Positions 30,030 through 63,975 are shown, numbered from the stretch's first letter. The stretch: DNA of 64,000 nt from Candidatus Woesebacteria bacterium RIFCSPLOWO2_01_FULL_39_23 (GCA_001793095.1 MGHG01000009.1:221849-285848), one strand, 5' to 3'. Program-made: numbers and translations. Notes: a model not told the origin generated them from the sequence alone.

Positions 30030-30030
30030 A

Positions 30031-31443: not shown

Positions 31444-31444
31444 T

Positions 31445-32524: not shown

Positions 32525-32536
32525 TCTCTATTTATA

Positions 32537-33931: not shown

Positions 33932-33938
33932 TTATTTA

Positions 33939-35012: not shown

Positions 35013-35018
35013 AATAAT

Positions 35019-35807: not shown

Positions 35808-35812
35808 TATAT

Positions 35813-42967: not shown

Positions 42968-44103
42968 GTATTCGGATTTTTTATGACGTTTAAATAAACG
43001 GCTAGAGTTGCTTTCGCGGTTTTTTGCCAAGTATACGTCTCAGAGACTTTGAAACCTCTTTTTATAAATTCTTCCCTTAATTTGTCACTATCAACCAAAT
43101 TCTTAATTTTTTCGGCAAAATCTTCCGGACTATCGGGATCAGCAATAAGCGCAGCGTCATGTGCAATTTCAACCAAGGCTTGTGTTTTAGATATCACGAC
43201 CGGAGTTCCACTAGCCATCGCCTCCAAAACAGGAAGACCAAACCCTTCATATAGTGATGGTTGGCAATAAACAGTCGCAAGATTATATATACAATTAAGA
43301 TCTTCGTCGGAGACAAAACCCAACCTCTTTACCGATGGGTTTTTATTAATTTCGTCTAGTAACATCTTGTAATGCGCTTTCTCAGGGTGAGGTCGGTTTA
43401 ATAAAAATCTTAACCAATCCCTCGGTCCTTTTATTGCTTTGAGGTCCGTTTTCAGATTCCTTTCAATTTCCGAAGCGTGCTTGCCGACAATAACCAGGGG
43501 GACTCTTGCAATATCACACGCTTTTACTAAAACTGGAATGTTTTTATTGTAATTAACATCACCCACATATAAAACAAACTTTTTGGACAAACCAAATTCT
43601 TTTTTTATTCTCGCCAACTTATTGCGGTCTTTTAAGGGTTTAAAAACGTTTTTTGCGGCAAGATATGCCACTTTTATTTTACTTTCGTTAATTCCCAATA
43701 ATCTGACAATATCTTTCTTTGTTGTTTCAGTATCGGTAATAATCGCACTTGCCCGCTTTATTAACAGTTTTTGAATTAGGAAATTTATACGCCCCTTAAT
43801 ACCAGGGGGATAGTGTTTAGGGTAAAGCAGATAAATAAGATCGTGCACCGTAACTATCAGTTTTCCCCGATATTTAATTGGAACTGTCAAAAAGTAAGGA
43901 TTAAAAAAACTCGAGTGAATCAAATCGTACCTTCCGCTGTTTAATAATTTAGCGTTTGTCAAGAAATCGAAATCATCAATGATTAATCTTTCCAAACCGC
44001 TTCTTTCTCTCGATAACGCGTTTAATATCTCGCTCGTGTAAAATCCCACACCTCTTACAGCGTGCCCACTTTTTAATGGTCCGCTGTCAAAAGCAATTCG
44101 CAT
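42964..44103 (-). CDS. Glycosyltransferase family 4
   Basis: EGFGLPVLEAMASGTPVVISKTQALVEIAHDAA. Confidence 0.8.
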   Translation of the reverse strand: MRIAFDSGPLKSGHAVRGVGFYTSEILNALSRERSGLERLIIDDFDFLTNAKLLNSGRYDLIHSSFFNPYFLTVPIKYRGKLIVTVHDLIYLLYPKHYPPGIKGRINFLIQKLLIKRASAIITDTETTKKDIVRLLGINESKIKVAYLAAKNVFKPLKDRNKLARIKKEFGLSKKFVLYVGDVNYNKNIPVLVKACDIARVPLVIVGKHASEIERNLKTDLKAIKGPRDWLRFLLNRPHPEKAHYKMLLDEINKNPSVKRLGFVSDEDLNCIYNLATVYCQPSLYEGFGLPVLEAMASGTPVVISKTQALVEIAHDAALIADPDSPEDFAEKIKNLVDSDKLREEFIKRGFKVSETYTWQKTAKATLAVYLNVIKNPNT

Positions 44104-44978: not shown

Positions 44979-45659
44979 ATGCCTGCTAAAAATGTGGTAA
45001 AAACCTATATCAATAATGGCATCTATCATATTTACAACCGTGGTGTAGAAAAAAGAAAAATATTCCAAGATAAACAGGATTATAATATTTTTCTGAACTA
45101 TATTAAGGAATATTTAAGTCCGCCGCCTGATATAAGTCAGTTAAAAACTCAATTCATTTTGCAAGGTGAGACCTTTAAAGGTCTACGAAGGTTACCACGT
45201 AATTATTATAAAAAAATTACTCTGATAGCTTACTGTTTACTTCCAAACCACTTTCATCTATTAATAAACCAAAACTCCACAGATGACATGCAAGAATTTA
45301 TTAGATCACTTTGTACTAGATACTCAATATATTTCAATAAAAAATACGACAGAGTGGGCGGACTGTTTCAGGGTCCATATAAAGCTGTTATTGTTACTGA
45401 GGATAATTATTTGCTCCATCTAAGTCGATACATACACCTTAATCCAAAGGATTACACAAAAGATATTATTAACACTTATTCTTCTTATGCCGAATATATG
45501 GGCCTAAGGAGGACGGAATGGGTAAAACCAGATATTGTGCTGGGTTTTTTCAACAACCCAGCTACACAAGAACTTATCAAAACTAATAATTATCGAGATT
45601 TTGTGGAAAAATACATTAAAGATTCTGAAGCGATTCTAGGTAATATGACACTTGAATGA
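44979..45659 (+). CDS. tnpA: Y1 (HUH) transposase, IS200/IS605 TnpA / RAYT-like
   Basis: YHIYNRGVEKRKIF...YCLLPNHFHLLIN (HuH motif) ...GGLFQGPYKAVIV...LHLSRYIHLNP (catalytic Tyr region). It is the only plus-strand gene in a minus-strand block. Confidence 0.75.
   Translation: MPAKNVVKTYINNGIYHIYNRGVEKRKIFQDKQDYNIFLNYIKEYLSPPPDISQLKTQFILQGETFKGLRRLPRNYYKKITLIAYCLLPNHFHLLINQNSTDDMQEFIRSLCTRYSIYFNKKYDRVGGLFQGPYKAVIVTEDNYLLHLSRYIHLNPKDYTKDIINTYSSYAEYMGLRRTEWVKPDIVLGFFNNPATQELIKTNNYRDFVEKYIKDSEAILGNMTLE
45159..45182. repeat. Loop-flipped internal copy of the IS-flanking hairpin inside tnpA
   Basis: TTGCAAGGTGAGACCTTTAAAGGT is identical to the flanking 24-mer except that the central CTC is GAG and there is a T>C change at position 4. 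It encodes LQGETFKG. Confidence 0.5.
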
Positions 45660-45739
45660 TCTTATTGTAAGGTCTCACCTTTAAAGGTTAACTACTGCTT
45701 TATCTTTTAAACTCATTTTTTGAAACGACAACGCTAATT

Positions 45740-46072
45740 TCAATTTTTTGCTCCGAGGGGAAGTTTTTTTACTGCGACAACAAACCTGGCCGGGTACAGC
45801 TTTACAAGGTGTTTTATATATTCATCATTAAATTCCTGATAATTTTCCATATCAGTTAGAAAAACTTGTGCAAAGACAATATTTGAAGCATCTAATCCTG
45901 CATACTTTAACTCTACCAAAATATTATTCATTGTCTGAGATATTCTTTCCGCAATCATTCCTTCTAACACTTTCCCTCGGGGTGTAAATTCAATTTTTCC
46001 AGAAAAGAAAACCAAATCTTTTGTCTCGATAAATGGAGTAAATGGTAAATCTGCCATAGTTAGTTTAATCAA
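45740..46072 (-). CDS. RidA / YjgF / endoribonuclease L-PSP family protein
   Basis: FSGKIEF...ISQTMNNILVELKYAGLDASNIVFAQVFLTDMENYQEFNDEYIKHL..YPARFVVAVKKLPLGA matches the RidA fold motifs (SGQ-like start, PAR..V.V..LP C-terminus). Confidence 0.65.
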   Translation of the reverse strand: MIKLTMADLPFTPFIETKDLVFFSGKIEFTPRGKVLEGMIAERISQTMNNILVELKYAGLDASNIVFAQVFLTDMENYQEFNDEYIKHLVKLYPARFVVAVKKLPLGAKN

Positions 46073-47048
46073 CTCTGTTTTGAGGTTTACCTTTAGCTAA
46101 AGCGACAATATTATCTACCCAAATCTTATATAAATTTTCCAGAGCTTCTTTGGTATACCATGCAAACCCTTTAAAACCAACCGCATTTTCAAGTTTTGCC
46201 AGAGGTGTGTGAACTAAGTCTTCTCCTTCGTACACGTAAGTATCAACCTTTCCTGACTTCAAGGCTTGAGCCATCGCCTTCTCGCCAACCAACTCCCTAT
46301 CCACGGTATTTACAATAATTACACCTCTTTTCAATTTTGCAATTTCCGATTTTCCAATCATGTTATTATTTGATACCTCGTGAGTAGCATTCAAAGAAAT
46401 CATATCGGATTCTCTTAACAGCTGGTTTAAAGAAACCATCTTTACCCCTTTCATCTTTTTTGGAGATCGATTATAGGCAATAACATTCATGCCAATTCCA
46501 GTACCAAGCTCTGCAACTCTGCTTCCAATATTTCCCAAACCTATGATACCAAGAGTTTTACCTTTCAGTTCAAACCCCTGCACCAGTTCATATTTTCCTT
46601 TTTGAGTCTTTCTATCAGAAATAAAAATTCTCTTTGCTGCACCAAGAAGAAATACTATCGCCTGCTCTGCAACCGATTCTTTCGAGTAACCTGGAATATT
46701 ACTAACGGGAATTTTGTGTTTCTTACACCAATCCTAGTCAACCCAACCAAAAGAAGTTGTCGATAAACAAACTCCTTTTAAACCAGGTACAGATGCCATT
46801 ATTTTAGTTAACTTTTCTTTTGCTTTCTCAAAACCGCCCAGAGGATCAGGGTCTACACCTATAATATCTACGTCTTTAGCCATTTCTAATAACTTATTCT
46901 CCTGTAGTGCCTCTCTGGTTTTTGTGTAAGATACTTTACCGAGCGAGGATAGTTTTTTCTGAAGTTCGGGGGAGAAACTTGATTGAGGATTAAATATAAC
47001 TATCTTCATAATCGTACTATAGCACTCTAAATCAAAAAGTAAATGCAA
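46065..47048 (-). pseudogene. D-isomer-specific 2-hydroxyacid dehydrogenase (glycerate/phosphoglycerate-DH-like) interrupted by a single in-frame TAG
   Basis: N-terminal catalytic-domain fragment (46737-47048) and NAD-binding fragment (GKTLGIIGLGNIGSRVA, 46065-46733) are in the same frame, separated only by TAG at 46734-46736. Read-through gives a colinear protein of about 327 aa: ...SFGWVD*DWCKKHKIPVSNIPGYS... TAG is used as a genuine stop elsewhere, for example at 1339. Confidence 0.6.
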
Positions 47049-47128: not shown

Positions 47129-48022
47129 TCATTTCCTCTTACTATTAAGAGACCAATACTTAAAATATGAAATCGGATAGTGAAGGGAAGAAAACGTGCT
47201 CCAAAGAAAGCCGCGTATGCCGTCCATAAACCCGCGATGTCTCACATATAGACTTACAAATGTAAGAGCGGGTTTGTATAAAGTATAAAGAATTAAGAAG
47301 TATGCATTTTTAGGGACACGCCTGTCTTTTAAATCCTGCGCATGTAAATCAGTATAGCGGTTCATACGCTCTAAATATCTCCTTAATGTTGGTGAGTCGT
47401 GGTGTTCCAAATCATGAAATAACCAACCGACTTCCCCATCAACCTCCATTAGCTCATGAACAGATTTTCCCGGTAGTCTTGCTTTTCCTTTCTTAAAAAG
47501 ACGTATTACCCCGTCTGGATAAACCCCGGCGTGAATTAAAGGCTTACCCAAGAAATAATTTAGTCGGGGTATGAAAAAAGCCACCACTTCTCCTGTGTGG
47601 CTACCCAGTGCACCTTCACGCTGCCTGATTAATCCCTCGTGTCTCCTGAATAACCTCTCCTTGTCACCCCTAACTCGTTTCGGAACCGATTCTGAAATAA
47701 ATTCAGCATGACGGTCTGTTAATACAGATTTAATTTCTTTCGCTAAGTCAGGTGTTACAACTTCGTCGGCATCGAGCTGCAAAATCCACTCCCCCGTCGC
47801 TTTATCTATGGCCTTTTGCTTCGTAATATGAAAATTCGTCTCGTAATGAAATTCATATACTTTAGCACCATAGGATTTAGCAATTTCAACCGTATCATCT
47901 GTAGAATATTGATCGGCCACTATAATCTCATCGGCTAAATTCTTTACCGAATTTAGACCCCGATCGAGATTTTGCTCTTCGTTCAAAACCGCTAAGACAA
48001 CTGATATTTTTTGTCTAGTCAT
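47129..48022 (-). CDS. Glycosyltransferase family 2
   Basis: ISVVLAVLNEEQNL...EIIVADQYSTDDTVEIAKSYGAKV...QLDADEVV (DxD). Confidence 0.7.
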   Translation of the reverse strand: MTRQKISVVLAVLNEEQNLDRGLNSVKNLADEIIVADQYSTDDTVEIAKSYGAKVYEFHYETNFHITKQKAIDKATGEWILQLDADEVVTPDLAKEIKSVLTDRHAEFISESVPKRVRGDKERLFRRHEGLIRQREGALGSHTGEVVAFFIPRLNYFLGKPLIHAGVYPDGVIRLFKKGKARLPGKSVHELMEVDGEVGWLFHDLEHHDSPTLRRYLERMNRYTDLHAQDLKDRRVPKNAYFLILYTLYKPALTFVSLYVRHRGFMDGIRGFLWSTFSSLHYPISYFKYWSLNSKRK

Positions 48023-49323: not shown

Positions 49324-50991
49324 TCAATTCGCTACTGCTTGAAAATATTTATATCCGTTTGTTCCATAAATTTCTTGAACAATGTTAGCTTCATTAGGTA
49401 TCTCTTCGTCTGTTCCGATTATAAGGCTTTTTGGGTAAGTAAGCCTATCTCTATCCCAATTTATGGATAAAAAGTGGTATTTGTCAAAACTTCTGACGGT
49501 CGAGAATTCATATGCGTCGCGGGGAGTTAAGTTGTGTTCTTTTTGAAATCTTGCCGGTGGGTATTTAAAATAGAAAAGAAACAAAATATAGGGCTGGTCA
49601 TACCTGTCAGTAACGACGATATTGTCATATCTATCCTGATTCTCTTTGACAAAAGTAACGAGTTCCTTTATACCGTACTGCGATGAATAAGGATACTCTT
49701 TAGACATATGATACCAGTACATATTTAAGTACCTTGAAAAACTCCAAATTCCCAAAAGTCCAAATACCAAAAAACCAGTAACCCCTAACCATTTCAGCTT
49801 TACGGTTGATAATCTATTTAAAGAGTATGCGAATCCAAAAGCAGTTATTATAGTCAGTGGAATGACCATATTTTGACTGCGCAACGCATGAGGAGATTGA
49901 AAAGTGAGAGCCGCAGCAGTCGGAGCAATTAATAACCACCATAGAATTAGGTAGTAGGGCTTAGTATGTAGGGAGTAGGTCCTGAAAAAATAAATTAATC
50001 CCAAGATAATAAATAGAATGTCAAATAAATACATTTGCCCTGTTTCGGGTACGGCGTTTCTTTGAATTACATCTCCCGATATAAATAGAAATCCACCACT
50101 ATAGTGATCACTCCAATTCTCTAAAAATGCTAAGCCGTAATTAACCGGTCTATTGTGTAAGAATAATGCTGGAAGTCCTCTAATATTCTCGTGTTCGCCG
50201 CGTTGTTCGTTTATTCTGGCCAGCGGGCCGGGATCTGACAAAAGCCCCACACCGGCAGCCCGGGAGGCTACGTCCCCTTTTATTAAATCCAACCCGAGGG
50301 GGATGAGAAGCAAGAATGCAATAGTACCTGTTATTGCGATCTGTTTAATATTTTTACGTATTTCATATCTGTAAATAACAAGTAGTCCAAAAAGTAAAAG
50401 CGGAACGACAACCCGAGCTGCATGATATGTGTATAAAGAAAGCACAAAACTAAGTGCTGATAACATTAAGAGTGGCAAGCTGCCCTTGCCTTTCAAAAAT
50501 AACCACAAACCCAAAACCATAAAAAAGGTTGCGACATTTACTTCCCAACCTCCCCGGGAAAAATGAATATGCCACGGCGAGATTGCGAGTATCAGCGATG
50601 CAATCGAAGCCAGTACATCAGCATTCATCTGTTTATGGATCTGCGTAAATCCTTCCCTAAATAACTCCTTAACTAATAAATACATTAGTAAAACGGTTAA
50701 TACACCCAACATAGCACCCGGAATCCTTACAGCCCATTCGTTCAAACCCAGTACTTTGACGAATGGAACAACCATATAAAAATAAAGTCCTGGTTTATAA
50801 TCATTGAAGGATTGAAAGTGTATCGGCCAAGGATTACCGTGTTCGTCACGACCGGTTTGAATTAACGAATATGCATTATAACCTATTGCCGCCTCATCGG
50901 CATTTAGTGCAGGATAAGAATTTAATTTATAGAATCTCAAAACAAAAGCCAAAATAATAATCAGAATTAAGACTAGTTTATTTTTATTCAT
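49324..50991 (-). CDS. ArnT/PMT_2-like GT-C membrane glycosyltransferase (paralog 1)
   Basis: LNADEAAIGYNAYSLIQTGRDEHGNPWP follows TM1, then about 12 TM helices and a C-terminal soluble domain. Confidence 0.65.
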   Translation of the reverse strand: MNKNKLVLILIIILAFVLRFYKLNSYPALNADEAAIGYNAYSLIQTGRDEHGNPWPIHFQSFNDYKPGLYFYMVVPFVKVLGLNEWAVRIPGAMLGVLTVLLMYLLVKELFREGFTQIHKQMNADVLASIASLILAISPWHIHFSRGGWEVNVATFFMVLGLWLFLKGKGSLPLLMLSALSFVLSLYTYHAARVVVPLLLFGLLVIYRYEIRKNIKQIAITGTIAFLLLIPLGLDLIKGDVASRAAGVGLLSDPGPLARINEQRGEHENIRGLPALFLHNRPVNYGLAFLENWSDHYSGGFLFISGDVIQRNAVPETGQMYLFDILFIILGLIYFFRTYSLHTKPYYLILWWLLIAPTAAALTFQSPHALRSQNMVIPLTIITAFGFAYSLNRLSTVKLKWLGVTGFLVFGLLGIWSFSRYLNMYWYHMSKEYPYSSQYGIKELVTFVKENQDRYDNIVVTDRYDQPYILFLFYFKYPPARFQKEHNLTPRDAYEFSTVRSFDKYHFLSINWDRDRLTYPKSLIIGTDEEIPNEANIVQEIYGTNGYKYFQAVAN

Positions 50992-52691
50992 CTTTTTTCT
51001 AAAATCCTAAACGCAACCTTGCCGTTTAAATATCTTATTTCTCTTATTTCACTAAAATCGAATTTAGTGAAGTCAGCATGGATTCTATCCGCATTTCCTA
51101 CAACTATATAGGATTTTGTGGCTCCAATATGGGGAAAACTATAATCCTCAAAACGAATATTATCCAATCTTTCGACTTGGCCCACATCACCCCTATACAC
51201 ACTCTCTTTTAACTTGGCCTTGCTTTGATAGAGTATTGGGTCATATTTTCCATAGAATAGAAAGTAGATATAAGGTTGTGCAAATGTTTGCTGGACAATA
51301 ACCTCGTTATATTCATCCTTAATAGGAGATACCACCTCGACAATCTGTTTATATCCATACTCCCAAAGTTTTGAATCGTGATTTGGAAGATGTACAAAAT
51401 AAGAATCAAAAAAATAAATCAAACTTCCGACATAAAGTGCAGTTAGAAGTATGTAGCTGGTAGCTCGGATAAATGCATGGGTTTTAATATTCTGCAACCA
51501 TAAAATTATTCCATTTAGACCAAAGGAAAGAATTATTATAAGTGGGATTACCATATTCATCGATCGTATCGCATGTACTTCATTGCGCGAAAGAACAGAT
51601 GGCAAAGGCGCGAATATAAGCCACAACGATACAAATAATATTTCTTTCATTAGTTTTCTTTTACATAGTACAATTAAACCCGCTAATAAAAATATTGCAT
51701 CCGTCATTAATAACATACCCTGATGTGGCGAGGAATGCCGCGGATTTGACCAATCACCTTCAAAAAATAAAAACCTGCTCGACATATGGTTGAACCACCT
51801 CCCCATTATTCCTCGAAAATAATTTAATGATTCGGTATGAAATAAATAATAACGTAAAGAACCGACTTTATCGTTATCCTCACTCAAGAATTTTTGTAAT
51901 TGATCGCCCGGCCTTGGATAAGAAAAAACGCTAAAAACAGTTAGCCTCCCCGCTTCTCCATTAACATAACTTTTGATAACGGGTACTAAACATAGACTAA
52001 CAATTAGCGTGCTTATAATCACAGGCTTAGAGGCGGGTTTAAAAACACCCCAAAAACTTTTCCAATATATAATCATCAGCAATGTCACAACTATTAAAGT
52101 AGAGAGCTTGGTACCCTGATATGTAATAAAAGTTAACGCAAAAAAGAGTACCGAGTAAATTAGAAATTTTGGCTTTCGAAAAGATTTGAGAAAAAAAAAT
52201 ATCCCAGCTAAGGTTAAAGTAAGGGCAACGTTTGCTTCCCAGGCTCCTCTAGAAAAATATATTAACCACGGTGTAATAGAAGAAATAAATGCGGATAATA
52301 TTGCAAGTCGACGATTGCCGAACAATTCTTTTGTAATTAGATAAATTAAGTAAACCGTTATTATCCCTGCCGTTGCGCTCGGGAGTCTAACGGAATATTC
52401 GTTTAACCCCAAAAGAGCGATGAAGGGAGCAGCTAAATAAATATAAAAACCAGGTTTGTAGTCCCCGAAAGATTTAAAAATAATCGGCAATACTTTCCCG
52501 TATTCGTCCCGACCGGTATTCAAAATTGAATATGCGTTATATCCGAGAGCGGCTTCGTCGGGGGTCAAGCTCGGAGGTATGCTCCCCAACTTCCATAGTC
52601 TTAATAAAACTGATAACAGAATAATAAAAAACAATAACATAGTACTGGTTTTGAGTTTTAAGTTATGAGTTCTAAGTTTATTTATTTTCAT
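50988..52691 (-). CDS. ArnT/PMT_2-like GT-C membrane glycosyltransferase (paralog 2)
   Basis: LTPDEAALGYNAYSILNTGRDEYGKVLP. The start is placed at the internal MKINKLRT. Confidence 0.65.
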   Translation of the reverse strand: MKINKLRTHNLKLKTSTMLLFFIILLSVLLRLWKLGSIPPSLTPDEAALGYNAYSILNTGRDEYGKVLPIIFKSFGDYKPGFYIYLAAPFIALLGLNEYSVRLPSATAGIITVYLIYLITKELFGNRRLAILSAFISSITPWLIYFSRGAWEANVALTLTLAGIFFFLKSFRKPKFLIYSVLFFALTFITYQGTKLSTLIVVTLLMIIYWKSFWGVFKPASKPVIISTLIVSLCLVPVIKSYVNGEAGRLTVFSVFSYPRPGDQLQKFLSEDNDKVGSLRYYLFHTESLNYFRGIMGRWFNHMSSRFLFFEGDWSNPRHSSPHQGMLLMTDAIFLLAGLIVLCKRKLMKEILFVSLWLIFAPLPSVLSRNEVHAIRSMNMVIPLIIILSFGLNGIILWLQNIKTHAFIRATSYILLTALYVGSLIYFFDSYFVHLPNHDSKLWEYGYKQIVEVVSPIKDEYNEVIVQQTFAQPYIYFLFYGKYDPILYQSKAKLKESVYRGDVGQVERLDNIRFEDYSFPHIGATKSYIVVGNADRIHADFTKFDFSEIREIRYLNGKVAFRILEKR

Positions 52692-54408
52692 ATATTTCAA
52701 AAGCAGTCTTTCCATCCAAATAATTAACGGTTTCTAACTTGTTCCAATTCATCGGCACATTTCCCGGACTAGTTATCAACATACAATTTATTTTTTTGCA
52801 CTCAAAGCCGCCCCCGTATTCCATCTTCCATAGTCCATCTTCTAGTTTCGGTATATCCCAGTCATTAACAAAATAAAATTTGTCGAACCGATCAACCCAA
52901 TACCAGTTAGACTGATGGAAACGAATTAGATTCGGATCGTTTTTATATTGTTGCGGATCCCATGGCCAAAAGAAAAGGAGAAACTCGTGGGGTTCACCGT
53001 ATTTTTTCGTAACGATAATTTTATCGTACTTACCGTAATTTACCCTTGCATAATTTATAACCTCTTTATACCCGTACTGCCAAGACCATGAGTAGTTTAA
53101 TCTGTAATTCCCAAAATAATTCCTCAAATATGCATAAACAGAAATTCCTAGGAATGTGAAATATATAATTGCAGCAAGTGGTGCGAATGCTTTGAATGTG
53201 TGATAACTTATCCAGTACTTCATACCGGCTGTAACCCTTCCCTTAACCATCCATTCCCAAATCGTAGCTAAACCAAATGCAGATAACAACATTGGCAGAG
53301 GTAGCATTGTTGAGGCCCTCGTTACAGCAAATGTTTCATTAGTAATACTTCCCGATATCGGACTTAATAAAAGCCAAGTTAATATTAATAAGTAGTCCTT
53401 CGATCCTTTGATGGCATTTTTTATTACTAAAAATATACCCAGGTAGAAAAAGGGTAAGTTAACAAGATACGATAAACCAAAACCCGGAAGGTTATATTGA
53501 TATTGAGTCCCTCCTTTAAAAAAGAGAAACTTCGGTGAAAAATATCCAAGAAAATTCGAGGTAAATTTTGTAATAAAATATGTCGGACGGTTATAAACAA
53601 ATCTTGCAATTTCATAAGGAAGAGTAGAAGCTTCACGCTTTTCAATAATACGATTGATCGCAGCCTGGTCGATAATAAAGAGCCACTTCGACCTAGCTCT
53701 CGAATTCGGATCGATTAAAATAACTACCGAGACTAGAAAAAAAACAATTATTGAAACAATAAATATTAATGAAATTAATCCTTTCCTCAAATATTTCTCT
53801 TTGAAATCATTTCTGAATATAAAAAGAGTTACTATAACTAAAAGCGGGGAAAAAATGCGCGTCGAATGATACGAAAATAATGTCAGAAACATTAATATGA
53901 ATGAGGCGGGAAGAAGAAATTTACTTTTGTGTTTATTGAAAAAGGCTGCCATGCCTGCGGTGAGTAAAAATATGGAAAGGTTTTGTTGGAGTACTATCCT
54001 TGATGTAAATAAAGTCCATGGTTCCAATACGACCAAGAGTGTTGTCAATAGTGATATGCCCCTGCTTTTAGTTAACGCATATGCTAAAAAATAGGCAGCG
54101 AGGGCAGTTAGTATACCCAAGATTGCATGCGGTAAACGTATTGAGAACGTACTTAATCCCAGAGCCGCAACGTAAGGAATAGTTAAATAAAGGTTTAAGG
54201 GAAGGGGATAATCTCCATAAGCTCGAAAATTTAAAATCGGAATCTTTCCCCATTCATCCGTTCCTGTTTTCAAAAGTGAATAAGCGTTATAGCCATGAGA
54301 GATTTCGTCCCACGACACAGATGGCGGATTTTCGCTAAGGTTAAACACTCTTAAGATAAATCCTGAGATTAGAATAATGGCCAAAAGTATATATATTCTT
54401 CTATTCAT
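52678..54408 (-). CDS. ArnT/PMT_2-like GT-C membrane glycosyltransferase (paralog 3)
   Basis: VSWDEISHGYNAYSLLKTGTDEWGKIP. Confidence 0.65.
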   Translation of the reverse strand: MNRRIYILLAIILISGFILRVFNLSENPPSVSWDEISHGYNAYSLLKTGTDEWGKIPILNFRAYGDYPLPLNLYLTIPYVAALGLSTFSIRLPHAILGILTALAAYFLAYALTKSRGISLLTTLLVVLEPWTLFTSRIVLQQNLSIFLLTAGMAAFFNKHKSKFLLPASFILMFLTLFSYHSTRIFSPLLVIVTLFIFRNDFKEKYLRKGLISLIFIVSIIVFFLVSVVILIDPNSRARSKWLFIIDQAAINRIIEKREASTLPYEIARFVYNRPTYFITKFTSNFLGYFSPKFLFFKGGTQYQYNLPGFGLSYLVNLPFFYLGIFLVIKNAIKGSKDYLLILTWLLLSPISGSITNETFAVTRASTMLPLPMLLSAFGLATIWEWMVKGRVTAGMKYWISYHTFKAFAPLAAIIYFTFLGISVYAYLRNYFGNYRLNYSWSWQYGYKEVINYARVNYGKYDKIIVTKKYGEPHEFLLFFWPWDPQQYKNDPNLIRFHQSNWYWVDRFDKFYFVNDWDIPKLEDGLWKMEYGGGFECKKINCMLITSPGNVPMNWNKLETVNYLDGKTAFEIYENK

Positions 54409-56068
54409 GTTTTTTCTTCAAGATAAGCAAACCAGCTAGTGCGAAACCGGCCAAACTTAAAAAATCTGTAAATAATCTGAATGGTGTCTCTTTCCAATAA
54501 ACACGTACCGTCGCAGGCGTACCATCTAAATGAATTTTGATATTCCCGTTCGGTTCTTTTATTTCAGTAGGCACTTCATTACCATTTACTTCTGCATACC
54601 AGCCGGGGAAATAATAGGAGTTAAAATACAAATCGCCTTTGCCGTTAACCTCTGCAGTGTAATCAATACTTGTATGTTCCGTAATACCAATTATAACTAA
54701 ATCATCAGATGTGAATTTTGCTGATTGGAGTTCAGAGGGTCGATCTCTTGCCCAGACGGGTAATAACAAATAATCTTCGCTATAATTTTTATATATCAAG
54801 CTTTCTTGTGATTTACCTGCGGATAACCGATTAGCAAAGAAGCGTTTCAAAAAATAATTATCATCGGGATTATAATACTCACTTGGCTTAAAATAAGCCA
54901 GTCCAGCCAATAAACTAAACATAATTAGCACAATTAATAATATTTTCCCGATTTTTGTGCGACTATTAATGAAGATCACCATGCTTGAGGTTAAAAAAGC
55001 GGTCAACATAAGAAGTCTCCAGGGGAATTGAATAAACTTGGACAAAGTTGAAATCTCCCAAATAAAAGTTGATCTGATGTTCATCATAAACAAAATCAAC
55101 AACGTCGCCGCGAGAAAAATAGTAGCCTCTATGTTTTTAAGTCCCTTTTTATATACAAAAATAGCAGTTACGATAATCAATGAAATATTCACAAGTCCAA
55201 TTTGAAAAGACATGTCATCATAAACGCCAGGGTTTGATGCTCCGTATCCCCACGAAGGAATAATCAGTTGTTTAATGAAAGGAAAGTGATCTTTATAATT
55301 AAAGGGTGTAATACTTACCAGATATTTTTGTTCTATTAAAGATGGCATCCAAAAAAAAGCACTTATCAGAAATCCGACAATAATACCTTCAAATATTTTA
55401 ATATAATTTCTGTTTTTAAAAGTTGTTAAAGATATAATAAATCCGTAAATAAACACACCCGGCATAAAAATTAATGGTGCAAGATTGTGGCTTAATATAA
55501 GTAAGGCCGTAAATAAACTCAAAAATCCTATGTCTTTCGTTTCGCCTGATTTAGCAACTTTGTAAACAAAATAAGCTATCAAGGGAAAGAAGATAAAAGC
55601 ATACAATTCCCCCAAAGCGCCCCTTATATAAAGGTCAACGGCACGGTAAGGCGTAAAAGTATAAACCAGAGCTCCCGTAAAGCTTGTCAATTTATCCGCG
55701 TGAAGTCTCAGCCATTTATACATAAGCATCGAAGATGCCGGAATAGTTAACAGGAATAGCATTTTAAGAGATATAACCAACGAGCCGGTAAGTTCATAAA
55801 ACAATGCACCTATATAAAAGGGTAGTGGGTAATAAAAATTAAATAGTGGATAACCATAGTTATAACTCATATCCGGTGCCCACCGCGGAGGGATCTGACC
55901 TGACCCGATTGCCCTAATCATTTGATATAAATTAGCAATGTGGGGTTCATCCGAAAAATAATAAAATCCCCGATGCAAGAGGGGTAAGCTTGCCGGTATT
56001 ATAAATACAAGTAACAGTACTAACCAACCGGTGTCAGACCAAAACAGGTTTTTTGTAAATTTTTTCAT
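54401..56068 (-). CDS. Polytopic membrane protein, putative GT-C glycosyltransferase of a distinct subfamily (GYGYPL / QFPWR signature)
   Basis: YFSDEPHIANLYQMIRAIGSGQIPPRWAPDMSYNYGYPLFNFYYPLPFY ... FIQFPWRLLM. Paralogous to 56065-57828. Confidence 0.45.
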   Translation of the reverse strand: MKKFTKNLFWSDTGWLVLLLVFIIPASLPLLHRGFYYFSDEPHIANLYQMIRAIGSGQIPPRWAPDMSYNYGYPLFNFYYPLPFYIGALFYELTGSLVISLKMLFLLTIPASSMLMYKWLRLHADKLTSFTGALVYTFTPYRAVDLYIRGALGELYAFIFFPLIAYFVYKVAKSGETKDIGFLSLFTALLILSHNLAPLIFMPGVFIYGFIISLTTFKNRNYIKIFEGIIVGFLISAFFWMPSLIEQKYLVSITPFNYKDHFPFIKQLIIPSWGYGASNPGVYDDMSFQIGLVNISLIIVTAIFVYKKGLKNIEATIFLAATLLILFMMNIRSTFIWEISTLSKFIQFPWRLLMLTAFLTSSMVIFINSRTKIGKILLIVLIMFSLLAGLAYFKPSEYYNPDDNYFLKRFFANRLSAGKSQESLIYKNYSEDYLLLPVWARDRPSELQSAKFTSDDLVIIGITEHTSIDYTAEVNGKGDLYFNSYYFPGWYAEVNGNEVPTEIKEPNGNIKIHLDGTPATVRVYWKETPFRLFTDFLSLAGFALAGLLILKKKHE

Positions 56069-57828
56069 GACGTCCTCCCCCGAGTCAGACTCGGGGGTTT
56101 CCCTAAGGAGGATGACTTGTCAGAGTTCAATTCACCCCCGGCCTGAAGGGCAGGGTTTTCTTGAACATTGTTATAAAGAATGTTATTTATAATTATTAAA
56201 AACATCGAGACTAAACTTACTATTGAAACCATATCGCCGGCAGTTCTCGGAAAAGAATTATTAAGACTTGCGTAAACAACATAATGCCCCTTGGTTAAGT
56301 CAAATTTTGGGAGTCCCAGGGTCCCGGAATTTGTATAAGGTATATCCGTATCGTTTGCGCTAATCTTCCAAACCGGGAAAGAATACGCAGGTAAAGCCAG
56401 TTCCGCCATACCGCTTTCTACAATTAAATCATATTTAAACCAATTACTACCTTTTATCGATGATTTTAAGTTAATTTCTCCGGTTAAGGGGATTAATCCT
56501 TCGGGTGCTACGTCATCGGGTGCACGCGACGCACTTTTTGGGAGGTAATCATAAATACTTGCAGTTAACTGTCTTTTCAAATTTTCGCCGCTAAGTTTTT
56601 CAGAATCATTTATAAAAAACCAATCTTTCGGTTTAAACATCCGCGAATAAAAAATAAGTATAATAAATATCGTAGCTAACGAGGAAAAGATTAAGAACTT
56701 GCCCTTAGACTGATTAAGAGCAAAACCGGCGAAAAAGGAAGATATAAAAATCGGCATCATAAGGAATCTCCAAGGAAACTGAAGAAATTCAAGAAAAGAT
56801 AAATTTTGCCAGATAAATATTGATTTGCTGTGAGACATAAACGCATAACCTAAAAAGCCCATCATACCGAATAAAAATAACGCCAAATTTAGTTTACGTT
56901 TGTTCACTTTAACAATTAATACCATTAAACCAGTAATAACTGCCAAGGTATGAATTGGGCCAATACCTAAAAAGGCATCGTCCCCTGCTCCGATAACCGA
57001 AGGGCCATAACCCCAATGAGTAAATACGAATAATTGACTAACGCTAAGAAAGTGTTGAAGGTAACCGAAATAACCAGCCGTCAAAGTCTCTACATGCACC
57101 AAATTTCTTTCATAAATAAGTGGTATTAAGAAAAAAGATGATAATCCTACACCTAATAATGAATACTGAAAAAGATCAATAAGTGCCTGCGATCTAACTT
57201 TGTAAAACTTTAATCGAAGCACAACCCAAATTAAAAAGATCGGAAGTACGATTAATACGGTCAGGTTGTGTGTTATGAAAAATATCGAGAGCGATAAAGA
57301 AAGTATTATTCCGGAAATTTTGCTTTTTTTCGCCAAATAATTTTCAAGTGCCCAAAAGATGAGTGGAACTACAACCAGCCCCCAACTCTCACCCATCGCA
57401 CCGCGAACATAAATTCCAGCAGCTCTCATCGGTGCGTAAATATATAAAGCAGTCGTTGCAAAAGATACATATTGTTTAAAAAATCTTCTTGAAAATAAAT
57501 AAAAAAACAGGGCAGAAAAAATAACGCTCAAGATAAAACCCGCTTTTACTGAATTAATTAACGATATCCCCAACAAATGAATTCCCTCCATGATGTAGTA
57601 CGGAAGCGGAGCATAATATATATAAAGCGGATAGCCATAACCTAACCCTAAATCCGGCACCCACCGGCAAGGAATTTGGCCATCCCTGAGGCATTTATCC
57701 ATCTCCCAAACACGTACAACCTGCATATCATCATACATTGAATAAAACCCACCTTTAAATAACGGAAATATTGCTGGAAGACACAGCAATAATAAAGTAA
57801 ATGCTGTGATGATGTTTTTCTTGAGCAT
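56065..57828 (-). CDS. Polytopic membrane protein, putative GT-C glycosyltransferase (paralog of 54401-56068)
   Basis: YSMYDDMQVVRVWEMDKCLRDGQIPCRWVPDLGLGYGYPLYIYYAPLPYY ... FLQFPWRFLM. The start is placed at the internal MLKKNIITAF. It has a C-terminal periplasmic-type domain and a low-complexity tail. Confidence 0.45.
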   Translation of the reverse strand: MLKKNIITAFTLLLLCLPAIFPLFKGGFYSMYDDMQVVRVWEMDKCLRDGQIPCRWVPDLGLGYGYPLYIYYAPLPYYIMEGIHLLGISLINSVKAGFILSVIFSALFFYLFSRRFFKQYVSFATTALYIYAPMRAAGIYVRGAMGESWGLVVVPLIFWALENYLAKKSKISGIILSLSLSIFFITHNLTVLIVLPIFLIWVVLRLKFYKVRSQALIDLFQYSLLGVGLSSFFLIPLIYERNLVHVETLTAGYFGYLQHFLSVSQLFVFTHWGYGPSVIGAGDDAFLGIGPIHTLAVITGLMVLIVKVNKRKLNLALFLFGMMGFLGYAFMSHSKSIFIWQNLSFLEFLQFPWRFLMMPIFISSFFAGFALNQSKGKFLIFSSLATIFIILIFYSRMFKPKDWFFINDSEKLSGENLKRQLTASIYDYLPKSASRAPDDVAPEGLIPLTGEINLKSSIKGSNWFKYDLIVESGMAELALPAYSFPVWKISANDTDIPYTNSGTLGLPKFDLTKGHYVVYASLNNSFPRTAGDMVSIVSLVSMFLIIINNILYNNVQENPALQAGGELNSDKSSSLGKPPSLTRGRTS

Positions 57829-57900
57829 GTGAATCGGCTTTTTTAGTCTAAGCACTATATTCAATTGTAACACCCCCTTAATGCTTGTTAAAATATAACG

Positions 57901-58725
57901 GTGAAGTTGAAAAAAATAATTATATTTCTCGGACTAATCTTTTGGCCTCTGACCCTATTATTAGCGAACACCCCATTGGATCTGATACGCTACTTGTTAC
58001 CGGCATTGATATTACTATTTTCTTTCAATCTCTTCCAAAAAGGTAAAAATTACTTCGAATATCCGCTTTTGTTCATATCGTTAATTGAACCCAAACTAAC
58101 ACTATTTCCACTTATTTTTGCCTTGATACTATATATAACCGACAAAAAACATATAACCCTAAGACGAAGTTCAGTAGTCCTCCTGATATCAATCGCTCTT
58201 ATCGTTACTAATTTTTTTGAATTGTCACGACAAACTATCTTCGTCAAAGATTATGAAGCACAACAAAAAGTCCTCAGAAATATTACCCTGTATCCAAATG
58301 TGTTAACTGCCAGGATCTTTCAAAACAAAGCCAGAATTATCATCAACAAATTCGATGATAATTTTTTTACGCTAACAGATCCGAATAATTATTTTTTCAG
58401 TAATCACCCAAGGGAAGATATCTTAGCGAATCAAAACTTAATAAAATATCCTTTTCTGGCTATTATTCCGTTTTTTATCGGAATCTATTTTATTTCTAAA
58501 AATAATGACCGGAAATTTATTATAATATCAGCAGTTGCAGCATTATTAACCCTAACACTCCTGACAAACTTCGACCGACACGATTTTGTTTTATGGGTTC
58601 CCGTATCGCTTATATTTACTGATGGGGTTAAGAAAATGGCGAAAAAAAAATATTTTACGGTTTTCGCTTCCATTTTTCTTATCATCTCATTTATTGAATT
58701 AATCCGTGCATACTACCTTTTTTAA
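57901..58725 (+). CDS. Hypothetical polytopic membrane protein
   Basis: 274 aa with about 6 TM helices and a probable GTG start. It lies immediately upstream of, and is co-oriented with, an ArnT-like gene. Confidence 0.4.
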   Translation: MKLKKIIIFLGLIFWPLTLLLANTPLDLIRYLLPALILLFSFNLFQKGKNYFEYPLLFISLIEPKLTLFPLIFALILYITDKKHITLRRSSVVLLISIALIVTNFFELSRQTIFVKDYEAQQKVLRNITLYPNVLTARIFQNKARIIINKFDDNFFTLTDPNNYFFSNHPREDILANQNLIKYPFLAIIPFFIGIYFISKNNDRKFIIISAVAALLTLTLLTNFDRHDFVLWVPVSLIFTDGVKKMAKKKYFTVFASIFLIISFIELIRAYYLF

Positions 58726-58727
58726 AT

Positions 58728-60407
58728 ATGACTAAAAAAATATCTTTACTGATTTTAATTTTGGCAATACTACTTGCCGTAATTACCCGATTATATAAAT
58801 TAGGCGAGGCACCTCACGGACTATATGTCGACGAAGCCGGACAGGGTTATAGCGCATACTCCATTTTAAAAACCGGTAAGGACGAGTTTGGGATGCCCTA
58901 CCCTTTTGTTTTTAGATCTTTTGCTGATTTTAAAACACCTGTTTATATTTATTTAATTGTTCCCTTAATTCCGGTTTTCGGTCTTACAATTTATGCTGTT
59001 CGGTTTCCTTCTTATTTCTTCAGTATTCTCACTATCATCCTAACCTACTTACTGATTATTGAAATTGCACCCAAAAAGTACAAATACTCGCTTGCCTGTG
59101 TAAGTTCTTTGTTACTTGCCGTTTCCCCCTGGCATATACTCTTTGGCCGGACCAACTTCGAATGCAATGTTGGTCTTTTCTTTTTACTAGGTGGTGTTTA
59201 CTTTTTCTATCTCGGCCTCAAAAAACCCATGTTTATCGTTTTGTCTTCCGTTTTCTTTGCTATTGCGCTTCCGGCTTATCACTCCCAAAGAATTGTTGCC
59301 CCGCTTACCCTTTTAGCATTAACACTTAGGCACAGAAAAGAACTTTTCTTAAAGACCAATACAAAATACCTAATAATTGCCGCCACTGTGGGTTTTCTGA
59401 TAACCTTACCCACCCTTTCTGTTGCTACAACTCCGGGCTTTTTAGCTCGAGCAACCGGTCTAAATATTTTTTCGACCGTTAGGCGGACTCCTTCCGGAAC
59501 ACTTGACGAAGTTAGGGGATTATCATCTTTTTTCGTGAATAACAGAATGTTCCTCTCTTCTAAAGAATTCCTTGCGTTATATCTCGCATATTATTCCCCT
59601 AGAAATATGTTCGTGCTTGGAGATTACGGCCTGAGAAGTTCATTTCCCGATCTTTCAACCTTCTTCATGTGGCAATTCCCGTTTTATATCTACGGAGCTT
59701 ATTTGTTTTTCAAAGAAAAAATGCTTGGTGAGCTTAGATCTATCGTCTTAACACTTTTTTTTATAGCTCCGATACCCGCTGCCGTTACAATAGATCCTTA
59801 TACTACAATCAGATCAATACCGCTTGTTATCCCCCAGCTAATATTTATTGCATTCGCCATAGTTTATGCTTTCGAAAAAATCAAAGACAAAAAGAGTAAA
59901 TATTTCTTTTACATATCTTTCGTTGTAATTCTCATATATTCAATCGCAAAACTATACAGTTCAGTAATCATCATCAATGAATTCTACCGAGCACAAGCTT
60001 GGAATTACGGTTGGGAAGAAGTCGTAGATGTTATAACAACCCGTCTTGATCCCAAAATCCCCATTGTAATAGATAATGCACGGGAAGACGGCTACATCCA
60101 ACTTCTATTTTTCTTAAAATATGATCCGGCAACTTACCAGAAATCAAATAACGAAGTTGCTCTTTCCGAATATTATACAAACATGCAACGCGTCGATTCA
60201 CGACAGATCGGAAATATCACTTCAAGGAAAATAGATTGGACTCCCGACACCATGAAAGAACAATACTTAATTGGGGATAATTTAGCAATATCGAACGAGC
60301 AAATAAAACTTCACTATTTAACCCCCATTACTGATATATTTTATCCCGACGGCAGCACGGCCTTTCGCGTGGTAAAAACAAACCCGAATCTAAAGCCAAG
60401 ACTGTAA
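58728..60407 (+). CDS. ArnT/PMT_2-like GT-C membrane glycosyltransferase (paralog 4, plus strand)
   Basis: LYVDEAGQGYSAYSILKTGKDEFGMPYP. Confidence 0.65.
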   Translation: MTKKISLLILILAILLAVITRLYKLGEAPHGLYVDEAGQGYSAYSILKTGKDEFGMPYPFVFRSFADFKTPVYIYLIVPLIPVFGLTIYAVRFPSYFFSILTIILTYLLIIEIAPKKYKYSLACVSSLLLAVSPWHILFGRTNFECNVGLFFLLGGVYFFYLGLKKPMFIVLSSVFFAIALPAYHSQRIVAPLTLLALTLRHRKELFLKTNTKYLIIAATVGFLITLPTLSVATTPGFLARATGLNIFSTVRRTPSGTLDEVRGLSSFFVNNRMFLSSKEFLALYLAYYSPRNMFVLGDYGLRSSFPDLSTFFMWQFPFYIYGAYLFFKEKMLGELRSIVLTLFFIAPIPAAVTIDPYTTIRSIPLVIPQLIFIAFAIVYAFEKIKDKKSKYFFYISFVVILIYSIAKLYSSVIIINEFYRAQAWNYGWEEVVDVITTRLDPKIPIVIDNAREDGYIQLLFFLKYDPATYQKSNNEVALSEYYTNMQRVDSRQIGNITSRKIDWTPDTMKEQYLIGDNLAISNEQIKLHYLTPITDIFYPDGSTAFRVVKTNPNLKPRL

Positions 60408-60439: not shown

Positions 60440-60970
60440 TTACTCCCCAAATAATTTATGACCATGTAAAAATTCATTCCAATACTTTACCCATAAAGGT
60501 GTCACCTCATGCTGATACTGAATGGCATCTTGGAGGTTGTTGTAGACCTTAACCTGGTATTGGGTGAAATTTCTGATTTCTTTTGTCCAAATTCTTCTTG
60601 CTGCGTTAAAGTTCTTTCTACCTTCCCAACTAACCCCAGAAAGTCGCTCCTTTATTCTCTCAATTTGACCTCGAATAATTTCCGGTAACTCTGGTAAGTT
60701 TTTTTCCCAATCCATTCGAATATACAATGAAGCTTTTGCGTATTCTGTCCTATGCGGAAGATAAATATTTTTATAACCAAAGGAGTTCTCATCATCACCT
60801 ATGATGCTTGCCAATACATTACCTAGTAGCAATTTATTTGTATCTAACCCCAACTGTGGAGAAATATGCCTCAGCCAGTCGCTATGAAGAGGTCCTGCTA
60901 TTGCCCAAGTTAACGGATTTTTCAGATCGGGTCTTGTTAAGTGAGGTGGCTGTTCAATTTCAAGCGACAT
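60440..60970 (-). CDS. Hypothetical soluble protein
   Basis: 176 aa with no TM helix and no recognisable family motif. Confidence 0.35.
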   Translation of the reverse strand: MSLEIEQPPHLTRPDLKNPLTWAIAGPLHSDWLRHISPQLGLDTNKLLLGNVLASIIGDDENSFGYKNIYLPHRTEYAKASLYIRMDWEKNLPELPEIIRGQIERIKERLSGVSWEGRKNFNAARRIWTKEIRNFTQYQVKVYNNLQDAIQYQHEVTPLWVKYWNEFLHGHKLFGE

Positions 60971-62259
60971 TAGCCACGATTATATCTCTTTAGTTTTAAC
61001 ACATTCAACTTGATGAATAGAAAAACAAAAACGAGCAAATTAATTACTGCTATTATATTCATAAAGAGCATGTTTTTATATAAATTCTCCAAAGATGTAA
61101 ATGAGGGTGCCCAGAATAAATAATAAATGTTAGCCAGGTGTGTTAAAGAAAGAATTATATAAGGTGTAATTAGTGTCGGAAGAAACGCCAAAGTAACGGT
61201 CGCATATGGGAAAAAGGGGTATAAATACCTCGGATGAATTCTGGTCATAAAAAGAAAGGAAATTAAACTACTCATCGCCAGAAGTAAAAATATATTTTTA
61301 GGAATCAAACTTTTTCTCAGGTAATAAATGGCCAAAATAACAAGCATCAAAAAAATCATCAAGCCATATGTTCTTGCTGATATTCCTAAAAATTGCGTCG
61401 AGTCTAGCACTCTCCCGGGACTAATAAGCCACCAGAAATTAAAGGCATTTGCGGTCAAAAAACCAATCTCACCCGGCAAGATTCTGTCTTGATACAATTT
61501 AACGAACCACATGGGAAAATCTGAATATGGGTGGAACCAAATTCCTATAGTAATAACTGTGGCTAACGACATAATAATTGCTTTAAGCCAAGAATTAAGT
61601 TTATGTTTTTGCATGATTGCAACCATTCCGAGTACGGGCATAAAAACAGCCAACGATGCCTTAAAAAGAAAACTTAAGGTAAAAAATAATGCAAATCGAA
61701 GAAGATTATTGTTGAGCAATGCAAAAACAGCCAGTAATCCGAAGAGATTTACAATCGCATCTGTCTGCCCCCACACAGCGGAGTTATACCATGTAAGCGG
61801 ATTAAATAGCCAAATCGCTGATAATAAAACCGCCAATCTGCTCTTGTTGGTTTTGTGGATGATATAACGATAAATCATCCATCCGATACACAAGTCTGCA
61901 AAAATACTCGGAAGTTTGACCAAAAGTGTCATGCCTCTTTGCTCCCAAAACCATATAAATGCAGATGGGAAAAATCTAAAGCTATCATTTAGATTTAAAG
62001 CAAGAGCATAAACAACTTTCCAGATACCACTTAAAGCTGTGAACATTAAAATATAGAGAGGTGGTTGATTTGGTTGAGAGTATGGCCATCCACCGGTAGG
62101 AATTTTATCGTATAGGCCATTTAAACCCCTCTGAAGGGCGATACCACCCCAGGATATATTGTTATTCAAATCCCCGTGATAAGCACTAAAGATAAGCGAA
62201 AGTCTTAAGACAAAGGCTAAAGCTAAGACAAAAAATAGGTATTTTTTAGATAACGGCAT
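60970..62259 (-). CDS. Polytopic membrane protein, putative GT-C glycosyltransferase
   Basis: 429 aa with about 11 TM helices. The first extracytoplasmic loop reads YHGDLNNNISWGGIALQRGLNGLYD...GGWPYSQPNQPPLY. Confidence 0.4.
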   Translation of the reverse strand: MPLSKKYLFFVLALAFVLRLSLIFSAYHGDLNNNISWGGIALQRGLNGLYDKIPTGGWPYSQPNQPPLYILMFTALSGIWKVVYALALNLNDSFRFFPSAFIWFWEQRGMTLLVKLPSIFADLCIGWMIYRYIIHKTNKSRLAVLLSAIWLFNPLTWYNSAVWGQTDAIVNLFGLLAVFALLNNNLLRFALFFTLSFLFKASLAVFMPVLGMVAIMQKHKLNSWLKAIIMSLATVITIGIWFHPYSDFPMWFVKLYQDRILPGEIGFLTANAFNFWWLISPGRVLDSTQFLGISARTYGLMIFLMLVILAIYYLRKSLIPKNIFLLLAMSSLISFLFMTRIHPRYLYPFFPYATVTLAFLPTLITPYIILSLTHLANIYYLFWAPSFTSLENLYKNMLFMNIIAVINLLVFVFLFIKLNVLKLKRYNRG

Positions 62260-62262
62260 TGA

Positions 62263-63975
62263 TCAAAGGTCTTTTCCTTCCACAATTAAATACGCAGGTC
62301 TTCCGCTCGGGTAGTAGATGGTTTTTATTGCGGGAACGTTATACTTAAATTCGTCGGGTTTACCTACCACAAGCACGTTTTTGTCCCTGTATGACGAGTT
62401 AATACTCCCAAAAATATATTTTCCCAATCTGTAACCATCTAACTGATCTAAAAATTTATAACCATTTTGTTCATAGACCAACCAGCTTTTAGATTCATTT
62501 TGATAATCTACTGGATCCCATTTTTCAAAAAAAGCAATCCAGATATTAGGAACCGAAAGTGTCCGACTCACAACAATATTGTCGTATCGGTATTCTATAC
62601 TAGCAACATACTTCACCGTCTCTTTTATACCATAATGCATACTCTCAGCACTTTGTACTGGTGCATGATAAATATAATTCTCCGTAAACTTGGCAATATT
62701 AAAAATTGCTAAAAGACTAAAAATACCAATCAGAACATATTTGAAAGTTAAAGGCCTGATGCTGTTTTTTAAACCTATCCATAACACGAATGCACCATAT
62801 GCAGAAATAACCTGAATTGCAGGCATCATCAACGCAGCCCGATTTGCAGCGTACCCAGGACCTTTGGTTAATGCTGCAGGTATTGGCGAAAGAATAAGCC
62901 ATAATAAGAAAAAATTCATATATTTAAAACCACGCTCCCTAACAAAAGCGATAAGCGCAGCAAACACAAAAACAGATTCGAATAAGTACAAAACCCCCTG
63001 ACCGGGAATCATCCCGTAGGTCCACTCTCCCGCTCCCTGAATAAACAAATAGTACGGAGATATGTAGGTAAAATAATTAGTTGTAAAAAGTTCAAAGACG
63101 TAGACGGCTTTATTTGAAAAAACCCTGGATATTAAATCGGGTAGTCCCTGAAGGTATGCAACGTAGCGCCTATCCGCAACTGCCTGCCACTTGTCGGTCG
63201 GGTTTAATATTGTCACGTCCAGGGGGCGTGCTGAGGCTTTACCGATTGTTGAAAAACATGCCGGAATAATAAATAAAAGTAATGTTACTGTCGATATAAC
63301 AACCCAAGTTCGATATTTTTTTTCTCTAACTAATTTCATTAACGCTTCGGCGTTTACATAGATCAGAAGTGCTAACATCGGGGGTACAAAAAATCTTGCG
63401 GCATGATAACTGAAAAGACTCAGGCCGAATGTTAAAGCGGATACAACTAACCATTTAGGATTACGTAACCCCTTCCAAAAAGAATAAATCCCAAACGGTA
63501 TAAAAAAAGTTGTTAAATTTGCTTCAAACGCGCCCCTGGATAAAGGTAGGTGCCATGGTGAAACTGCCAAGAGAGTAGCTGCCAGAATTTCCAAATTCCA
63601 TCCGCCGGTTGGCGGACCGATTTCCAATTTACTGTCACCCCTTCTTAACTCTTTGACCAGCAGATAAGTAGCGTATATGGCTAACGTACCAATTACGGCA
63701 TTAGGTAGCCGCACGGCAAATTCATTAAGTCCGAATAACGCAATTGATGGAACCGCAAGGTATGAGTATAGCGGCAGTTTAAAATCACCAAACGAGCGCA
63801 ATGATAACGGCAGGTATTCTCCCCAGGAATCGCGTCCTGTTTTTAAAATAGAATAAGCATCATAACCTATCCCCGCCTCATCCTGGGTAAATCCTGTCGG
63901 ATAAGATGTTAAGTTATACACTCTTAAAAAAAATCCCAGTGCAATTATAAAAAAAAGGAACGTTTTAGCTTTCAT
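62263..63975 (-). CDS. ArnT/PMT_2-like GT-C membrane glycosyltransferase (paralog 5)
   Basis: FTQDEAGIGYDAYSILKTGRDSWGEYLP. Confidence 0.65.
   Translation of the reverse strand: MKAKTFLFFIIALGFFLRVYNLTSYPTGFTQDEAGIGYDAYSILKTGRDSWGEYLPLSLRSFGDFKLPLYSYLAVPSIALFGLNEFAVRLPNAVIGTLAIYATYLLVKELRRGDSKLEIGPPTGGWNLEILAATLLAVSPWHLPLSRGAFEANLTTFFIPFGIYSFWKGLRNPKWLVVSALTFGLSLFSYHAARFFVPPMLALLIYVNAEALMKLVREKKYRTWVVISTVTLLLFIIPACFSTIGKASARPLDVTILNPTDKWQAVADRRYVAYLQGLPDLISRVFSNKAVYVFELFTTNYFTYISPYYLFIQGAGEWTYGMIPGQGVLYLFESVFVFAALIAFVRERGFKYMNFFLLWLILSPIPAALTKGPGYAANRAALMMPAIQVISAYGAFVLWIGLKNSIRPLTFKYVLIGIFSLLAIFNIAKFTENYIYHAPVQSAESMHYGIKETVKYVASIEYRYDNIVVSRTLSVPNIWIAFFEKWDPVDYQNESKSWLVYEQNGYKFLDQLDGYRLGKYIFGSINSSYRDKNVLVVGKPDEFKYNVPAIKTIYYPSGRPAYLIVEGKDL

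Follow-up and report, generated by a model that had tools for sequence, protein, structure and literature searches.

The window analysed here, a 64,000-nucleotide stretch of the genome of Candidatus Woesebacteria bacterium RIFCSPLOWO2_01_FULL_39_23 (GCA_001793095.1, MGHG01000009.1:221849-285848), carries two adjacent genes for large membrane proteins, here named A and B, that share long conserved motif strings. To which family do they belong, are they paralogs along their full length, and what might they do at the membrane? A first-pass annotation, made from the sequence alone, read them as a tandem pair of large membrane proteins and a possible uncharacterised clade resembling glycosyltransferases (GTs) of the GT-C superfamily, and could not place the motifs in a named family. 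The analysis identifies A and B as members of the PTPS_related family (PF10131), whose close sister in the GT-C superfamily is YfhO, and, judging by their sequences, as anciently diverged paralogs.

Full-length paralogs of the PTPS_related family

The two open reading frames (ORFs) lie on the minus strand, as do all of their features given below, and our ORF listing agrees exactly with the coordinates and lengths first reported. Gene A, the A-type paralog, occupies 54401-56068 and encodes 555 residues from an ATG start. Gene B, a B-type paralog of the first-position class described below, occupies 56065-57873 and encodes 602 residues when read from a GTG. The products are 100% identical to the deposited hypothetical proteins A3A76_03805 and A3A76_03810 of the same bacterium, and the same pair was present on 22-25 contigs from several sources. 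In the NCBI annotation gene B starts at the ATG at 57828, giving 587 residues, and a TTG at 57864 with an upstream GGGGG Shine-Dalgarno sequence is an alternative; the true start is likely one of these two. Residue numbers of B follow the 602-residue form throughout.

Alignment of A with B by BLASTP gave 31% identity over about 508 residues (E 2e-59), indicating genuine full-length paralogy and neither a chance match nor a similarity of short motifs alone. The tandem pair proposed from shared motifs thus extends well beyond them. Reading the sequence at the B/A junction (56065-56080) revealed a GGGGAGGA Shine-Dalgarno sequence within the 3' end of B; the stop of B and the start of A overlap in a 4-nt ATGA. 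At its other end, gene A shares 8 nt (54401-54408; ATGAATAG) with the PMT-type gene downstream (52678-54408), whose start codon lies in this overlap. These overlaps indicate translational coupling of B with A and of A with the downstream gene. The C-terminus of B (56065-56160) forms a tail of about 30-40 residues that is modelled as disordered and is absent from homologs, which cover about 88% of B; the Shine-Dalgarno sequence of gene A sits within the coding sequence of this tail.

Both proteins matched the PTPS_related model above its gathering score of 26.4 bits, A with 56.1 bits (residues 76-406) and B with 30.7 bits (residues 86-263). The model was also matched by 36 of the 40 aligned homologs, most matches carried precomputed PF10131 labels, and the UniRef names of A and B already accord with this family. 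PF10131 is listed in the GT-C clan CL0111 with unknown function (PMC7801869). The clade suspected at first is therefore GT-C-like, as proposed, and it is uncharacterised in the sense that we found no functional study of it; it is not new, being already catalogued as PF10131. The motifs could not be tied to a family name because the PF10131 match covers A only from residue 76 onwards, leaving out the GQIPxRWxPD half of the signature and the invariant acidic residue that follows the first transmembrane (TM) helix. A profile search of 1.84 billion representatives returned 21,331 clusters at E <= 1e-3 and 14,822 at E <= 1e-10, counted as clusters at 50% identity. Distant high-GC members share the pattern D...G-x-hP-x-RW...G-x-P-x-F...Y-x-P together with QFPWR, indicating that the signature is family-wide.

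Other families were matched less well. PMT_2 (gathering score 26.1 bits) scored 18 bits with A and gave no match with B, and YfhO (PF09586, 28.5 bits) reached its threshold with neither protein. The YfhO model was matched by two of the 40 homologs and by a natural fusion protein, P0241 (63.5 bits). The NCBIfam scan gave no match for A, B or four neighbours, and a sequence search of the PDB with A, B and a 40-sequence profile returned nothing significant, that is, no detectable solved structure of the family or a relative. The neighbouring proteins with a DEAxGYxAYS motif belong to Pfam PMT/PMT_2 and are a separate family, as had been supposed.

Among experimentally studied proteins, the nearest relative is YfhO of Bacillus, Staphylococcus and Listeria, an enzyme that acts on lipoteichoic or wall teichoic acid. 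It transfers N-acetylglucosamine (GlcNAc) from C55-P-GlcNAc to teichoic acids and has a large outer domain between its last two helices (PMC5836110, PMC8035078). A and B share this topology and the placement of the outer domain, both systems are associated with GT2 genes, and NCBI gives the name 'YfhO family protein' to some B-type homologs. However, the outer domain comprises about 135 residues in A against 389 in B. subtilis YfhO (PMC5836110), YfhO is a single gene paired with CsbB whereas arrays of two to four paralogs are found here, and the host is a Patescibacterium without known teichoic acids. Pmt1-Pmt2 and Pmt4 (GT39) and bacterial PMT_2 proteins differ from A and B, which lack a MIR domain, have a different first-loop signature and match PMT_2 only weakly. 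ArnT (GT83) and STT3/PglB/AglB (GT66) gave no sequence-level match, and neither A nor B has a WWDYG or STT3 signature. The mycobacterial GT-C enzymes AftA, AftB, AftD and EmbA-EmbB showed no detectable sequence similarity; A and B are much smaller and come from a different phylum.

Invariant residues and predicted topology

AlphaFold2 models of A and B had mean confidence values (pLDDT) of 90.1 and 88.6, and the proteins resemble solved GT-C enzymes in three dimensions. The modelled helices, hydropathy and the positive-inside rule together predict 12 TM helices with both termini inside, which lies within the 8-13 helices of the GT-C superfamily. The predicted outer loops of A include the first (residues 32-81) and a long flexible one (residues 250-291). 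Its extracytoplasmic C-terminal domain (residues 392-528, about 135 residues; 54485-54895) lies between TM11 and the last helix and contains a beta-sandwich at residues 458-525. The last TM helix (residues 529-550; 54419-54484) is followed by a cytoplasmic KKKHE tail. The polytopic layout with an outer C-terminal domain thus agrees with the GT-C-like reading.

All four motif strings quoted in the first-pass annotation were found verbatim. The first-loop signature reads LYQM...GQIPPRWAPD...GYGYPLFNFYYPLPFY in A (residues 47-85; 55814-55930) and VWEMDKC...GQIPCRWVPD...GYGYPLYIYYAPLPYY in B (residues 55-93, including C61 and C69; 57595-57711), and it does fall in the first extracytoplasmic loop. 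Hydropathy and the AlphaFold2 secondary structure place QFPWR directly before TM10, at the outer end of that helix (A residues 347-351, 55016-55030; B residues 365-369, 56767-56781). The invariant aspartate right after TM1 (FSDE in A, YDD in B) had gone unnoticed and is a better candidate for a catalytic residue. It belongs to the acidic pair D40-E41 of A (55946-55951), whose counterpart in alignments is D48-D49 of B (57727-57732), and it provides the conserved acidic residue that GT-C enzymes carry, as such or within a modified DxD motif, in the first extracytoplasmic loop.

Conservation was mapped over 218 family members from 79 species-representative genomes, comprising all four positional classes, with A numbering. 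D40, P60, R149, G150, E154, H194 and the whole of Q347-F-P-W-R351 were conserved in 218 of 218 sequences, and Q58, R62, D66, G72, K102, P140 and E246 were nearly invariant. P74 was present in 100% of the A class and in 86% of the middle (B') class. In the predicted topology, the conserved polar residues D40, D66, R149, E154, H194, E246 and R351 all lie at the outer face.

An hhalign comparison of the family with the window's five PMT-like paralogs gave a moderate resemblance (probability 72%, E 3.3e-5), and D40-E41 paired with their DE motif. This motif marks the catalytic position of PMT-type GT-C enzymes, which makes D40 a candidate catalytic residue. An arginine in front of TM10 has been described as a GT-C hallmark (PMC7801869). 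R351 occupies this position and is thus a candidate phosphate-binding arginine. Both assignments are putative.

Paralog arrays and natural fusions

In Microgenomates the family forms a conserved array, and A-B is its short version. Nearly all of the 79 loci have two to four paralogs arrayed on the same strand, and among Microgenomates (Woese-, Davies-, Shapiro- and Collierbacteria) most loci show family genes that abut or overlap at their ends. Their usual order is B, a B'-type gene in the middle, A and, in some cases, a fourth paralog. The B gene of the window falls in the first-position class, and the middle B' gene is absent from the window. Orthologous A-B pairs occur in dozens of genomes. 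Average-linkage clustering of the 218 members split A from the rest and did not separate the B subclasses. With classes set by array position, identity was higher within classes (41-46%) than between them (29-37%).

The classes differ around the first loop. All B-like classes have a C-x7-C pair (C61/C69 of B), with 100% conservation, and an invariant arginine at position 46; the A class lacks the pair and has Ala/Thr and Pro in its place. A contains no cysteine, and B contains three, one in TM1 in addition to the pair. The two conserved cysteines could form a first-loop disulfide in the B-like classes.

The arrays keep similar company. GT2 genes flank them in 54 of 80 loci, PMT-type GT-C genes also flank them, and Wzx-type flippases are often nearby. 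In the window, the operon of A and B also contains three PMT-type GT-C genes, a flavin adenine dinucleotide (FAD) oxidoreductase and a GT2 gene, and the order B, A, PMT, PMT_2, PMT, amine-oxidase-like flavoprotein, GT2 is identical in another Patescibacteria contig. Many species-representative TPA_asm records of metagenome-assembled genomes titled 'uncultured Gammaproteobacteria/Pseudomonadales bacterium' (loci L004, L006, L007, L010-L012 and others) contain arrays of the Microgenomates type whose proteins are 40-50% identical to those of Woesebacteria; these titles look like placeholder or wrong taxonomy.

Family members also occur as natural fusions. P0241 is a seamless B'-A fusion of 1093 residues, with three cluster members from independent sources (NCBI, Logan and ENA). 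GT2 domains are fused to first-class paralogs in four proteins of about 825 residues (P0247, P0255, P0277 and P0330), paralogs are joined to PMT or PMT_2 proteins in P0290, P0383 and P0296, and in P0372 a paralog is fused to TPR repeats. The fusions mirror gene order and speak for a functional and possibly physical coupling. The set of fusion proteins, to which P0243 also belongs, includes a 3329-residue high-GC protein with several YfhO/PTPS-like modules and a GT87-like segment; faulty gene calling may have produced it, or it may be a real mega-fusion.

Proposed activity and the glycan island

A and B are quite probably active PTPS_related GT-C enzymes that move sugar from a polyprenyl-phosphate donor onto a glycan or glycoprotein of the cell surface, and they may do so as a hetero-complex. 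In the mechanism we propose, a flipped polyprenyl-phosphate-linked donor would pass its sugar, outside the membrane, to the growing glycan or glycoprotein. D40 would serve as the acid/base that activates the acceptor, like the DE motif of PMTs, and R351 and H194/K102 would bind the phosphate of the lipid. In a pathway of several GT-C steps, A and B would each contribute a different sugar or a different linkage. Every invariant residue is kept in both paralogs, so both are probably active. Conserved adjacency and the paralog-paralog fusions suggest that A and B work side by side, possibly in a hetero-complex that could be likened to Pmt1-Pmt2 or EmbA-EmbB. The use of a polyprenyl-phosphate donor outside the membrane is consistent with the GT2, GT2+DUF2304 and Wzx genes of the surrounding island. 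At 40800-41800 (minus strand), a 218-residue GT2 (41144-41800) is directly followed by a 115-residue DUF2304 membrane protein, and the same pair occurs in another locus (L001); a further co-encoded GT2 lies at 47129-48022. We take it to resemble GacI/GacJ, the undecaprenyl-phosphate-GlcNAc synthase of group A Streptococcus; the pair is a candidate maker of the lipid-linked donor for the GT-C enzymes.

Family membership, fold, conservation, operon structure and fusions are demonstrated here, whereas activity, donor, acceptor and complex formation are what we infer. Several observations weigh against the proposal. Our literature search found no functional study of PF10131 members. The YfhO model (PF09586) gave no match at E <= 0.01 for A or B. 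The proposed clustering of the invariant residues in one pocket is based on the predicted topology and not on measured distances, and the hetero-complex is suggested by gene order and fusions only. In the fusions, the GT2 domains are less similar to the GacI-like GT2 than to ordinary GT2s encoded in the window (10286-11260 and 5411-6322), so we do not claim that the fused GT2 supplies the lipid-linked donor. YfhO works with a co-encoded GT2 that makes C55-P-sugar and with a GtrA-type flippase; the window yielded no flippase of this type.

Three alternatives were weighed. If A and B were enzymes of the oligosaccharyltransferase kind, they would transfer a pre-assembled glycan en bloc from Wzx-flipped undecaprenyl-diphosphate onto proteins such as S-layer proteins or pilins, and would not take single sugars from polyprenyl-monophosphate donors. 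We consider this quite unlikely. Membership in the STT3/PglB/AglB family (GT66) was rejected, since A and B contain no WWD or WWDYG motif and gave no STT3 Pfam match, and the structural matches to Pmt4, Aft and ArnT were equally strong. Two to four paralogs accompanied by many PMT-type enzymes fit a stepwise addition of monosaccharides better than a single en-bloc transfer, for which a separate Wzy_C/O-antigen-ligase-like protein (8944-10311) is present. It is very improbable that one paralog is catalytically dead, acting as a scaffold or acceptor-binding subunit, or that the family flips or exports lipid-linked glycans and is not a transferase at all. The classes do differ in the cysteine pair and R46, but these are substitutions around an intact core: all family-invariant polar residues are kept in A, in B and in the four positional classes, and neither protein looks degenerate. 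That the pair arose from a duplicated contig region or a split gene has practically no probability, as A and B are each full length and only 31% identical; this divergence, the 22-25 contigs from several sources and the orthologous pairs in dozens of genomes exclude an annotation or assembly artefact.

A bolder extension, which we judge unlikely, would make the conserved same-strand array (B, B', A and in some cases a fourth member; here B-A) an obligate hetero-oligomeric GT-C machine for the processive assembly of a Microgenomates-specific surface polymer at the outer face, an undescribed polymerising system. The C-x7-C loop of the B-like subunits and the cysteine-free A would then reflect distinct roles, for example catalytic-extending as against priming or acceptor-holding. 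Its logic would be like that of EmbA-EmbB, with an independent evolutionary origin.

The whole 64-kb window is one glycan-biosynthesis island, and the minus strand carries nearly all of its genes. It comprises a Bac_transf initiating transferase (660-1313), ManC (1339-2424), a Wzx flippase (23697-24992) and Gmd (37553-38560) with a further epimerase/reductase, as well as at least five GT4 genes, at least seven GT2 genes, and FkbM and other methyltransferases. PMT/PMT_2-type GT-C genes number at least ten (7512-8954, 14689-16143, 25040-26665, 38574-40031, 41813-43030, three within 49324-54408, 58728-60407 and 62263-63975).

Some neighbours of A and B are less readily classified. A 429-residue polytopic membrane protein (60970-62259, minus strand) had no Pfam or NCBIfam match, and its relatives adjoin PTPS_related arrays in 13 fetched loci; its profile resembles the PMT-like paralogs weakly (hhalign probability 26%), and it may be another very divergent GT-C. 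Next to it, a 176-residue soluble protein (60440-60970, minus strand) had no family match. A 274-residue membrane protein on the plus strand (57901-58725), divergent from gene B across a very short intergenic gap, gave an EpsG-like match below threshold. Farther away, an IS200-like Y1 transposase (44979-45659), among the few plus-strand genes of the island, adjoins a RidA-like gene and a 172-residue fragment corresponding to part of a D-2-hydroxyacid dehydrogenase NAD-binding domain; the region 44979-46583 looks like an insertion that broke or separated island genes. GC content falls to 26.6-30.6% at 30000-36000, against about 35-38% elsewhere. This trough holds four ORFs without a Pfam match (30031-31443, 31445-32524, 32537-33931 and 33939-35012) beside MptE-like and FkbM methyltransferase genes, and in this it recalls the variable, GC-poor core of O-antigen-type loci.

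Genomes of the Candidate Phyla Radiation are tiny, yet this one gives a 64-kb stretch to glycan synthesis, with at least 12 GT-C enzymes. The A-B pair reveals no new fold or principle, and its family was already catalogued. What the analysis adds is a signature with the candidate catalytic residues D40, R149/E154, H194 and the arginine of QFPWR, together with orthologous subclasses (B, B', A and the fourth), a conserved operon and natural fusions. With these defined, the very large PF10131 family becomes a testable target for biochemists.

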